From a virus (lineage: Duplodnaviria > Heunggongvirae > Uroviricota > Caudoviricetes): a stretch of DNA of 9,121 nt. The DNA lies in IMG/VR virus record IMGVR_UViG_2645727991_000010, positions 1 to 9,121 of that record; one strand, written 5' to 3'. Below, in pieces: positions 1-7,163 of this stretch; the first letter of the stretch is position 1, and each line of letters opens with the position of its first letter. A program made the translations under genes and the position numbers. The notes beneath the pieces are model-generated. The model saw only the letters and a program-made list of their open reading frames with translations. It was not told the origin of the DNA and searched no databases.

Positions 1-3000
1 CACTATGGGTATGCGCCCCGGTGTTATTCGTGGATTTAGTGCCGTAATCAAACGACGATGTGGTTTTCGTCCCCAAATCCGTACTGGATGCGCTGGCGCT
101 GTGGGTATGCGATTTAATGCCGTCCTGTTCCTGAGACAATACGGCCCGACCACTGGCAGGTTTGCCCTTAATCGTCCAGCCACGCATATCAGGGATCACG
201 CCTGACGGATAAGCGGCTGCAAGTTTCGGGTAAGCAGATTTGTCAAAAGTCTGCCCCTGCATCAGGGCATAACCAGACGGAACGGTATCTGATGGCCACG
301 GGATTGGTGCGCCGACTGGGTAGCTTTCTGGTGGAAGATTTTTCGAGGTATAAACTTCTGCCCAGTCTTCCTCAAAACCATAACCGTCTCTTGAAGAACG
401 GTAGAACAGACCACCATTTCTGTAATGCGCCTTCATCTGCAAGGTCCGGCAACTTCCGACTCCGGTATAGAAGTTAACCAGAATATAGCTGTCGCCAGAG
501 CGGGTGACATTGTAAGCACCTGATTCGGCATTCCAGGGAACGCCACCATCCGCATCGGCATATGTATCCGTTGCCCTTCTGGCAAAAGCAGCCACATGCG
601 CGGCGGTTAAAGTAATATCTCTGGAACCATCAAACTCAACACCAGAAACCCGTCTTGGCGTTTGCAGCTTTGTTGCTGTTAATGCATTACCGTTCAGACT
701 TGCGGACAGTTTGGTTCCAATAACCAGTTCGCCGGTTGCGTTATCAATAGCAAACGGTCTTAATGTATTCCAGCTACCATAAACATCACCTTGATTGGTA
801 AGCAGCAGGTAAGTTTTAGCGCCATCATTACGCCATAATGCCCCATACTCCCCACCTATCATTCGAATCTGATTACCACCACGCGCTACAATTTCGTCTG
901 TGGCAAAAAGTTTTTTGCACGACAAATTATCGTTAACGATTAACGAATGAGACTCATAAAAACCACGCCCACTCTTAAAATCAAGGATAACGTCCGCCGC
1001 GATACATTCAGTCGCTGGATTTGTTGCCCCAAACTTATAGGTCGTATCATTAACAACGAGATCAGCACCAGGTGCGGATATTGACAGGCCATCTTCGATA
1101 AACGCAAAAACAGGGAAAGCAGCGCCATCAACATAGAACACAGAGCGCAAATCATCGCCCTTATTACTCATCATTATTGAGTGGATGGCTCGTTCATTGT
1201 TTTGATATTGCCAGAACATTCCATAAGCATAACGCCCCCTGTCAGTCCAGCCACCAGGCATAACAAATCCGTTAAACTCGCAGTTATTCATCGGATCGCC
1301 TGCGGTTCGCGTTGCCGTGGTGATAATGACCCTTGATGCCAGTTCGCTTACTGAGCCAGCAGAACGCATAACAACAACAGGGTAATATTTTCCAGATGTT
1401 GCACCTGCAGGAGCGTTAACCCGCACATAACGCATACCACGCTTATCAGCAAAGTCTGTTTTACTGACCGCGTTAATGTTGTTCAGGAAGCGTCCCTTAT
1501 CGGGTATATCAGCGCCGTTCTGGTCTTTCTGCAGACGTTTCTCTGCATTGTCATAGGCTGATTTTACTGCCTTTGGCGTTGCCGCCAGCGTTTCAGACGT
1601 ACTGTTGGTCGCACTGCTGAGCTGTACTATCCCCTTTTTCGTCGTGCTCGCATCCTCAAGCGCCACGGCGGATGCAATATCCTCTGCCCGTTTTGCCGCT
1701 GTCTCGGCGCGCGTTGCCGCGGATTCCGCCGTACTTTTGCTCTGTGCTGCCGCCGTCGCACTGCCAGCTGCCTCTGTCGCCTTCGTGGATGCTGTCGTGG
1801 CGCTGCCCTTCGCTGCTGACGCCTGTCTGGTCGCCTCATCTTTTGAAGCAGACGCCGATGATGCCGATGACGCCGCCGAACTGGCTGACGATGCGGCAGC
1901 CGTTTTTGAGGATTCTGCGCTGGTTTCCGACGCTTTCGCGTTCGTTTCGGATGTCTTCGCTGCGGAAGCAGAACTCGCTGCTGCGCTGGCCTGTTCAGTG
2001 GCTTCGCCAGCCTTCGTTGTGGCTGTTGAAGCGGATGATGCGGCGCTTTCTGCCGATTTTCCGGCGGCGGTGGCACTGGCTGAGGCCTGCCCGGCACTTG
2101 TTGACGCGGCGCTGGCAGATGATGCAGCCGCTGTTTTTGAGCCTGCCGCAGCTGAGGCGCTCTGTCCCGCTGCCGTCTCAGAAGACTTAGCGTTCGTCTC
2201 GGACGTTTTTGCCGCCTTCGCGGAATTTCCTGCCGCCGTTGCCGAGGAAGTTGCGCTACTGGCGCTCGAGGATGCGTTCGTTTCTGATGATTTCGCTGCC
2301 TCTTTTGAGGCCGCCGCATCCCGGGCTGAGGTGGCAGCTTCTGACGCTTTCGTGGTCGCGGTGGATGCAGAAGTGGCTGCTGATTGTTGTGACGCTGCAG
2401 CATTCGTTTCTGACGTTTTCGCCGCACCGGCACTGGTAGCCGCCGCGCTTTTTGAGGACTCTGCAGCGGCAGCACTTTTTGAGGCTTCAGTGGCCTTTGT
2501 TGATGCCGTTCCTGCGCTGGAAGACGCTGACTGAGCCGACGACGCGGCCTGTCCGGCTGACGTGCTGGCTGCACGTGCTGAATCTGCAGCATCAGTCGCA
2601 CGGGTTGCCGCCTCACTGGCAGATGTGCTGGCATCACTGGCTGACTTCTTCGCGGCTGCCGTGTTCTGTGCCACCACGGACGCGTTACGCGCCACCTCTT
2701 CCACCATCAGTTCAAAACGACGCAGTGCCTCCGGACGGGCATCATCCTCCGTCATGGCACCGAGAAAATCATTCAGCGTACCGGGTTGAGAATCTTCATA
2801 CACGGTGATGGTCCCGGCATGTGACGGCGGGAATCCCTCCACCAACAGAATAACGCTGTACTGACCGTACTCAACGTCCATGCTGTAACGCCCGGCTTCA
2901 TCCGGATTTTCTGAGGCCAGCGTGTTCACCACCACAGTGGTACTGTTACGTTTTGCTTTCAGCTGGATTGTGCAGTTCTGTACCGGTTTTCCTGTGCCGT

Positions 3001-3031
3001 CTTTCAGTACACCTGAAATCTTTACTGCCAT
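1..3031 (-). CDS. stf: Side tail fibre protein (lambda Stf / Rac StfR-like), 3'-truncated by the window edge; ATG at 3029-3031, open frame through position 2 (at least 1010 codons)
   Basis: Not in the ORF track because there is no in-frame stop inside the window; the absence of any listed minus-strand ORF in this frame implies it is open throughout. My translation from 3031 gives [26 protein letters not shown]..., which I recognise as the lambdoid side-tail-fibre N-terminal domain. I translated the last 360 nt codon by codon: ...[104 protein letters not shown], matching the distal lambda Stf region as I recall it. Upstream in-frame stop at 3071-3073. Preceded by GGGG/GGTG 5-8 nt upstream of the ATG. 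Confidence 0.88.
1650..2700 (-). repeat. Degenerate in-frame Ala/Ser/Thr-rich repeat tract encoding the fibre shaft of Stf; recurring peptide unit ~AKTSETNA / SKSAAA
   Basis: Recurring nucleotide motif on the plus strand, gcgttcgtttc(g/t)ga(c/t)g, at about 1936-1955, 2190-2210, 2276-2290 and 2400-2420. Very high GC (about 67% in 1741-1800). Spawns long spurious ORFs in all other frames (1605-2534 +, 1627-2637 -, 1672-2190 +, 2452-2808 +). Confidence 0.6.
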
Positions 3032-3040
3032 ATTCACCCC

Positions 3041-3069
3041 ACAAAAAAGCCCGCCTGAACCGGCGGGCT
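3041..3069 (-). terminator. Rho-independent terminator downstream of lom (minus-strand transcript)
   Basis: Stem 3048-3055 (agcccgcc) pairs with 3062-3069 (ggcgggct), loop 3056-3061. On the minus strand the stem is followed by UUUUU (plus-strand A-run 3043-3047). Sits 27 nt after the lom stop and about 10 nt before the stf ATG. Confidence 0.7.
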
Positions 3070-3095: not shown

Positions 3096-3695
3096 TCAGA
3101 ATTTATAACCAACACCCACGATGAACCCGTCAGTGCGCCAGTCACCACTGCCGGAGCCTTCATAAGCGACATCAATGGCCACGGATTCGGTCGGGTTAAA
3201 CTGCACGCCAGCCCCCCACGCCAGAGACGTGTTGCTGTGGCGACCGTCATCACTTCCGGTCAGCACATCGTGCGTTTTCCCCTTGTTGTCAGTTACGCGA
3301 AGATAATCCCCGGAGAAAGTCGACACACGGCTGTAAGCCACGCCTGCCATCGCATACGCGCTGAACCATTCATTCACGCGTACAGACGGCCCCGCCATCA
3401 CGCTGAACCAGCGGTTACGCACGGAATCTTCATGCCAGCGGGTATCGCTGTAATGGGTCAGCTGGCGATTCTTGTCTCCTGCATAGCTGAATGACGTAAC
3501 CAGCCCCAGTGTGTCCGTAAACTCATAACGGTATTTCACGTTAATCCCGTTCAGATCATCACTGCCGGGAACGTTCGTCCGGGCATGAAGATACCCAGCG
3601 CTCAGCGTGGACTGATGTTCAGACGCCCATGCAGGCGCACCGGATACGGCCAGACAAATGGCTGCGGACAAAATGGCGGCATAAAGTTTACGCAT
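3096..3695 (-). CDS. lom: Outer-membrane beta-barrel protein Lom (Ail/Lom/PagC family), 199 aa
   Basis: ORF-track translation has a Sec signal peptide (MRKLYAAILSAAICLAVSGAPAWA, AxA cleavage site), alternating hydrophobic beta-strand pattern and C-terminal aromatic residue (…VGYKF) typical of small OMP barrels. Recognised as lambda Lom. Position between J and stf as in lambda. RBS gagagg upstream of the ATG at 3693-3695. Confidence 0.93.
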   Translation of the reverse strand: MRKLYAAILSAAICLAVSGAPAWASEHQSTLSAGYLHARTNVPGSDDLNGINVKYRYEFTDTLGLVTSFSYAGDKNRQLTHYSDTRWHEDSVRNRWFSVMAGPSVRVNEWFSAYAMAGVAYSRVSTFSGDYLRVTDNKGKTHDVLTGSDDGRHSNTSLAWGAGVQFNPTESVAIDVAYEGSGSGDWRTDGFIVGVGYKF

Positions 3696-3716: not shown

Positions 3717-3743
3717 AATAAAAAAGGCGTCATTTCTGACGCC
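3717..3743 (-). terminator. Rho-independent terminator immediately downstream of J (minus-strand transcript)
   Basis: Stem 3726-3732 (ggcgtca) pairs with 3737-3743 (tgacgcc), loop tttc. On the minus strand it is followed by UUUUUUAUU (plus-strand 3717-3725 aataaaaaa). Lies 19 nt after the J stop (3762-3764). Confidence 0.75.
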
Positions 3744-3761
3744 CGTTCTGGGTTATAAAAT

Positions 3762-7163
<3,402 letters not shown>

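Follow-up and report, generated by a model that had tools for sequence, protein, structure and literature searches.

A Rac-type side tail fibre gene with an exchangeable central cassette in a lambda-type tail module

A long gene lies at the edge of the 9,121-nucleotide stretch of viral DNA analysed here (IMG/VR record IMGVR_UViG_2645727991_000010; hereafter the window). An earlier reading of the letters, made by a model that ran no database searches (hereafter the sequence-only reading), took it for a mosaic side tail fibre gene carrying a horizontally acquired internal module, possibly involved in receptor recognition or in the binding or degradation of glycans. This raises three questions: which fibre is encoded, where its central block begins and ends, and what that block may do in the fibre.

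The reading frame starts at the ATG at 3031 and runs on the minus strand to nucleotide 1, which gives 1010 codons and an N-terminus MAVKISG. Upon re-translation no in-frame stop was found, and the chance of such a stop-free frame in random sequence is about 1e-21. An SD-like GGGGTG is found close 5' of the ATG. The frame is absent from the list of stop-bounded ORFs because it runs off the window edge, as the sequence-only reading had pointed out. The gene is an ordinary truncated copy of the Rac-type stfR of E. coli and is thus already known; stfR has been part of the annotation of the K-12 genome for decades. The encoded protein is 98.6% identical, with no gaps over aa 1-1010, to the Rac StfR of E. 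coli K-12 (b1372, NP_415890.2, 1120 aa), and the two genes are 97.8% identical in DNA with no indels, which agrees with the earlier suggestion of a fibre closer to the long Rac StfR type. Identity to a prophage fibre of 1116 aa (WP_074147718.1) is 98.8% for the protein and 99.0% for the DNA, also with no indels. The domain order and the central cassette are the same as in K-12, and the two proteins are collinear over all 1010 residues of the window. The loci differ in their surroundings: in K-12 Rac, IS5 interrupts lomR and there is no J, whereas in the window stf lies behind an intact lom and an intact J.

Genes of this type are frequent. At least 80% of a 3.1-kb stf query was found in 1231 of the 5426 complete E. 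coli genomes, and the isolated lambdoid phages PhiR34_1, 2H10, Kati, ev099 and mEp332 carry stf at 97-98% identity. The proteins of the relatives have 1116-1120 aa (1134 aa in the annotation of PhiR34_1, where the start is two codons upstream). Their genes end 106-110 codons past the position of the window edge, so about that many codons are missing here. In every close relative examined, stf is immediately followed by tfa, the gene that the sequence-only reading expected downstream; in the StfR relatives just described, a pin invertase gene comes next. More generally, a serine invertase of the pinQ/pinR type is encoded just after tfa in most StfR-type loci; no second inverted fibre-tip cassette was obvious downstream of stf-tfa in the stretches of the relatives examined. 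A search of NCBIfam with StfR gave no match, and we found nothing specific in the literature on mEp332, PhiR34 or the function of StfR.

The genes encoded upstream, identified with Pfam, are lom and J (Table 1) and, beyond J, the genes I, K and L, all on the strand of stf and in the order L, K, I, J, lom, stf. The genes lom, J, I and K are intact, and so is the segment of L contained in the window. The fibre gene is thus directly downstream of J and lom, as is typical of StfR-type fibres in lambda-like tail modules, and since lom, J, I, K and L precede it, this region corresponds to the tail-tip end of a lambdoid (pro)phage with an unremarkable tail module of the lambda type. Over its full length the window matched none of the complete E. 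coli genomes at better than 96.7%. The window is therefore another mosaic combination of common parts.

Other observations concern the neighbours of stf. The minus strand shows two strong hairpins that resemble terminators, each with a GC-rich stem of 8 bp and a T run behind it. One is directly after lom (3048-3069) and ends ~17 nt before the ATG of stf; the other is directly after J (3725-3744). Given the hairpin between lom and stf, the expression of stf presumably depends on antiterminated late transcription that reads through it. The last ~150 codons of J (~3762-4214, minus strand), corresponding to the C-terminal receptor-binding domain (PF12421), gave no megablast alignment to lambda J, and the preceding ~1.9 kb of the gene align to it at 94%. 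The prophage with the best match to stf is unaligned over about 3845-4662, which overlaps the 3' end of J. Within the window, this end of J seems to be a second mosaic joint in a host-range determinant. A 510-codon ORF antisense to J (4536-6068, plus strand) is probably spurious and a result of the high GC3 of J (0.68).

Table 1. Features of the stf locus, with residues numbered along the fibre protein and positions along the window.
Feature	Residues (aa)	Position (nt)	Strand	Evidence or remark
stfR-type side tail fibre gene, 5' part		1..3031	-	1010 codons plus one base, cut at the window edge
N-terminal tail-attachment domain	1-134	2630..3031	-	PF08400, E 1e-71; PDB 9e7m, lambda tail fibre residues 1-94, E 6e-52
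Ala/Ser/Thr-rich low-complexity shaft	135-470	1622..2629	-	A 36%, S 25%, T 13%
Fibre repeat and conserved junction motif	471-521	1469..1621	-	Mu gpS residues 90-172 and 146-172
Exchangeable central cassette, ~354 residues	522-875	407..1468	-	Breakpoints against other Stf alleles; low GC3
Sub-domain b, compact beta-sandwich, ~140-150 residues	521-672	1016..1471	-	Predicted fold
gp34-type triple beta-helix and P4 beta-prism shaft element	663-778	698..1045	-	PF21446 (Gp34_trimer)
Mu gpS/S'-like pre-tip domain	809-901	329..607	-	PDB 8ju3 residues 318-409
gp37-type putative receptor-binding tip, first half	902-1010	2..328	-	Collar and start of the His-x-His needle; remainder past the window
lom		3096-3695	same as stf	Pfam; adjoins stf
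J		3762-7160	same as stf	Pfam

The comparison with lambda bears out the earlier description of a fibre with lambda-like ends and a non-lambda middle. Residues 1-404 share 72.8% identity with lambda orf-401, and residues 903-1010 (nt 2-325) share 83% with residues 69-186 of lambda orf-314; aa ~500-900 have no lambda counterpart in the alignment to these two proteins. The Stf of Ur-lambda has 774 aa and is split as orf-401 and orf-314 in lambda PaPa. It shares with StfR the N-terminal domain, the start of the shaft, the distal tip (gp37-like and dependent on Tfa) and the location after lom, but lacks the cassette at aa ~522-875 and has a shorter Ala/Ser shaft.

The ends of the protein are readily assigned to known modules. 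The N-terminus carries the prophage tail fibre domain PF08400 that is expected of StfR-type fibres. The Ala/Ser shaft that follows aligns repeatedly to residues 111-394 of lambda orf-401. TRF gave scores of only 43-50 in the shaft, too low to be convincing for tandem repeats in the DNA, and its recent expansion by repeats at the DNA level is thus unsupported. Several stop-free ORFs overlap the shaft in other frames or on the opposite strand (1605-2534, plus strand, 309 aa; 1627-2637, minus strand in another frame, 336 aa; 1672-2190, plus strand). They are almost certainly artefacts of its GCN/AGC-rich codon composition; the lambda record has a similar antisense 'orf206b' annotated inside stf. 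At the other end, the tip shows the Pfam domains Collar (PF07484) and Phage_fiber (PF03335), and the full tip of the K-12 protein (aa 902-1120) matches the tip of T4 gp37 (PDB 2xgf) with an E-value of 3.5e-87, the likeness to gp37 covering StfR from aa 902 onward. Of this gp37/lambda-type tip the window encodes aa 902-1010, which include the collar and the first of the HTHS motifs; the distal half is outside.

We delimited the central block by comparison with other alleles of Stf. The fibres of PhiR29_1, PhiR26_1 and PhiR68_2 (966-1025 aa) have the same flanking genes as the StfR type and share with it aa 1-521 (88-96% identity) and aa 876-1010 (86-88%), but have in the central slot an unrelated ~200-residue segment that is Mu-gpS-like and lacks PF21446. 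In phage Turner the cassette is homologous and has diverged to 52-74% between flanks that are 96-100% identical. Since the alternative alleles cease to match after aa 521 and match again from aa 876, the exchangeable slot corresponds to aa 522-875 (nt ~407-1468). This displaces both limits of the block from the 600-1550 given by the sequence-only reading. The left joint is inside a conserved junction motif, L-x-KD-x-NGADIP-x-K-x-F-x-x-N (~1469-1549, aa 495-521), which occurs twice in Mu gpS (residues 146-172 and 181-205) and is a candidate homology patch for the exchange of modules between unrelated fibre genes. The right joint, near aa 876, is within the pre-tip domain. Mosaicism of fibre genes among lambda, P2, Mu and T4 is the classical picture (as cited in PMC3945230). 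The cassette is the standard state of StfR and not a new insertion. The idea of an acquired internal module thus holds in part: the block is exchangeable and mosaic relative to lambda Stf, but it is collinear and conserved, at 98.6%, in the ordinary StfR of K-12. The sequence-only reading had itself named such conservation as telling against it, and the mosaic is not novel.

The base composition gives a similar picture. The three 60-nt values quoted earlier (32%, 43% and 67% GC) are exact, with GC contents of 0.317 at 901-960, 0.433 at 1441-1500 and 0.667 at 1741-1800; over larger segments, GC is 0.458 at 600-1550 and 0.611 at 1551-2700. Yet amino-acid content accounts for most of this raw contrast: the shaft upstream has ~61% GC because it is rich in Ala, Ser and Thr, which brings GC2 to 0.79 in aa 135-470, where GC3 is 0.52. 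A difference persists in GC3, which is 0.40 in the cassette (aa 522-875) and 0.53 in the rest of the gene (z = 4.1). Among 280-codon windows, GC3 is lowest in the one starting at aa 523, a value not reached in any of 2000 permutations. The central block is thus compositionally distinct at synonymous sites, as had been proposed, but less dramatically than raw GC suggests.

The earlier reading could not assign the ~400 residues of the block to any known fold. We recognised folds in about two thirds of them, by matches to PF21446 and to Mu gpS/S', and only sub-domain b was left unassigned. The family PF21446 (Gp34_trimer) matches aa 663-762 with an E-value of 3e-27 (95.7 bits against a gathering cut-off of 27), and aa 663-778 match residues 1036-1107 of T4 gp34 (PDB 4uxe/5nxf; E 4e-11) and also residues 268-336 of Mu gpS. 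In this region of gp34 the P4 beta-prism interrupts a triple beta-helix; the region is purely structural, being part of the proximal half-fibre that does not bind the receptor (PMC5537660). The segment with the triple beta-helix and the P4 prism is all that StfR has in common with the C-terminal region of gp34; in a myovirus, gp34 forms the proximal half-fibre, and it has neither a Stf-type N-terminus nor a Stf-type tip. Over the block, matches to Mu gpS/S' in the PDB have E-values of 1e-26 and 4e-15. For the pre-tip domain, the match to the gpS/S' chimera in 8ju3 has an E-value of 1.2e-26 for the whole chain and 6.6e-21 for the stretch at aa 809-901. The likeness to Mu gpS/S' (PDB 5yvq and 8ju3) covers the junction motif, a single domain of the shaft and the domain before the tip, but Mu has a different tip and another chaperone (U). 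What StfR shares with Mu gpS/S' and T4 gp37 are separate modules, recombined in another order and context.

Sub-domain b has no Pfam family, and profiles built with 9 or 32 diverse homologues gave no significant match among PDB sequences. The antibody VH and nanobody chains that appeared in these searches (E 0.02-0.8) were set aside as noise from one over-represented family. The sub-domain matches tail-fibre families of PHROG and was found by tblastn in 263 phage records, including fibres of T5-like, rV5-like, Aeromonas T4-like (annotated gp36 or hinge) and Nonagvirus phages. An exhaustive search of 1.84 billion representatives gave only 126 clusters at 50% identity, mostly in proteins of ~950 residues; repeating the search for homologues with a distant-homologue profile retrieved nothing but short fragments from E. 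coli, which did not increase the diversity. The AlphaFold2 model made with the diverse alignment of 32 sequences is a beta-sandwich of about 11 strands (pLDDT 90, pTM 0.86), and a monomer model of aa 520-790 (shallow alignment of 27 sequences, 44-96% identity; pLDDT 53) was discarded. Foldseek found no match to this model in the PDB at E <= 1e-3 (best TM-score 0.44), but in BFVD, a collection of predicted viral structures, the same fold is present (TM 0.57-0.91) in long, uncharacterised fibre proteins from a wide variety of phages. There was no significant similarity, in sequence or structure, to a known CBM or lectin. In nearly all of 87 diverse relatives sub-domain b is internal, with a median of 436 residues after it (fewer than 60 in one of the 87), and it is paired with varied distal modules: tips with a Peptidase_S74 chaperone, Collar, or gp36/gp37. 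Because it is internal and combined with many different tips, sub-domain b fits a shaft element better than the receptor-recognition domain initially suggested.

The explanation that best accounts for these results, and which we consider probable, is a standard StfR fibre with a swappable gp34/gpS-type shaft-extension cassette and a gp37/lambda-type tip. The fibre would be a modular homotrimer docked on the tail tip by its N-terminal domain. Its length and geometry would be set by the Ala/Ser shaft and by the cassette, which, after the junction motif, would provide a beta-sandwich knob, a gp34-type triple beta-helix with P4 prism and a Mu gpS-like domain. The low GC3 of the cassette would be that of a shaft-extension module exchanged into the gene through recombination at conserved junction motifs. 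The needle tip, of the gp37/lambda Stf type and presumably folded with the aid of the downstream Tfa chaperone, would be the first part to contact the cell surface, and would do so reversibly. Such a layout would follow what is established for the Stf of Ur-lambda and for engineered Stf chimeras: Ur-lambda Stf binds OmpC and the replacement of the C-terminal part of Stf has retargeted engineered particles (PMC11338833), and a component of lambda Stf can take over the function of the part of T4 gp37 that recognises the receptor (Montag 1989, as cited in PMC3945230 and PMC11338833).

Some of the same data could be read differently. The cassette, and especially sub-domain b, might be an accessory lateral module that binds a receptor or a glycan (e.g., LPS/O-antigen) and provides a second specificity or avidity, which is consistent with its hypervariability between alleles and with its weak tailspike-like structural neighbours. 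We regard this as unlikely, because the internal position, the gp34-like shaft neighbours and the promiscuous pairing with many different tips favour the role of a structural knob or spacer. A glycan-degrading domain, also raised by the sequence-only reading, has a negligible probability: there is no match to a hydrolase or lyase and no catalytic beta-helix in StfR in Pfam, NCBIfam or the PDB, the model of aa 521-672 is a ~150-residue beta-sandwich with no right-handed beta-helix, and the alignments to tailspikes span ~100 of their 540-680 residues at 7-13% identity. The gene might also be the decaying remnant of a cryptic prophage, encoding no functional fibre, given that its closest named homologue is in the defective Rac prophage (with IS5 in lomR and without J) and that its 3' end is outside the window. 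This is very improbable, since the frame of 1010 codons is intact, like the upstream genes lom, J, I and K and the segment of L in the window, and near-identical genes are found in phages that form plaques and were propagated on K-12 or on E. coli C. We therefore rejected the depolymerase and the pseudogene and retained the swappable shaft-extension cassette.

As a discovery the locus is of little value, because stfR has long been annotated and the mosaicism of fibre genes in lambda, P2, Mu and T4 is textbook knowledge. It does illustrate that a list of stop-bounded ORFs gives no sign of the largest gene in a window when this gene is cut by the edge. The only mildly new item is sub-domain b, a ~140-residue part of a K-12 protein with neither a family assignment nor a solved structure. 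It may found an undescribed family of phage-fibre beta-sandwiches and could be a lateral, lectin-like module with a second specificity, directed at glycans and not dependent on the gp37-like tip, although we consider this proposal doubtful. Its place in a defined and swappable slot could help those who engineer lambda-based delivery particles.
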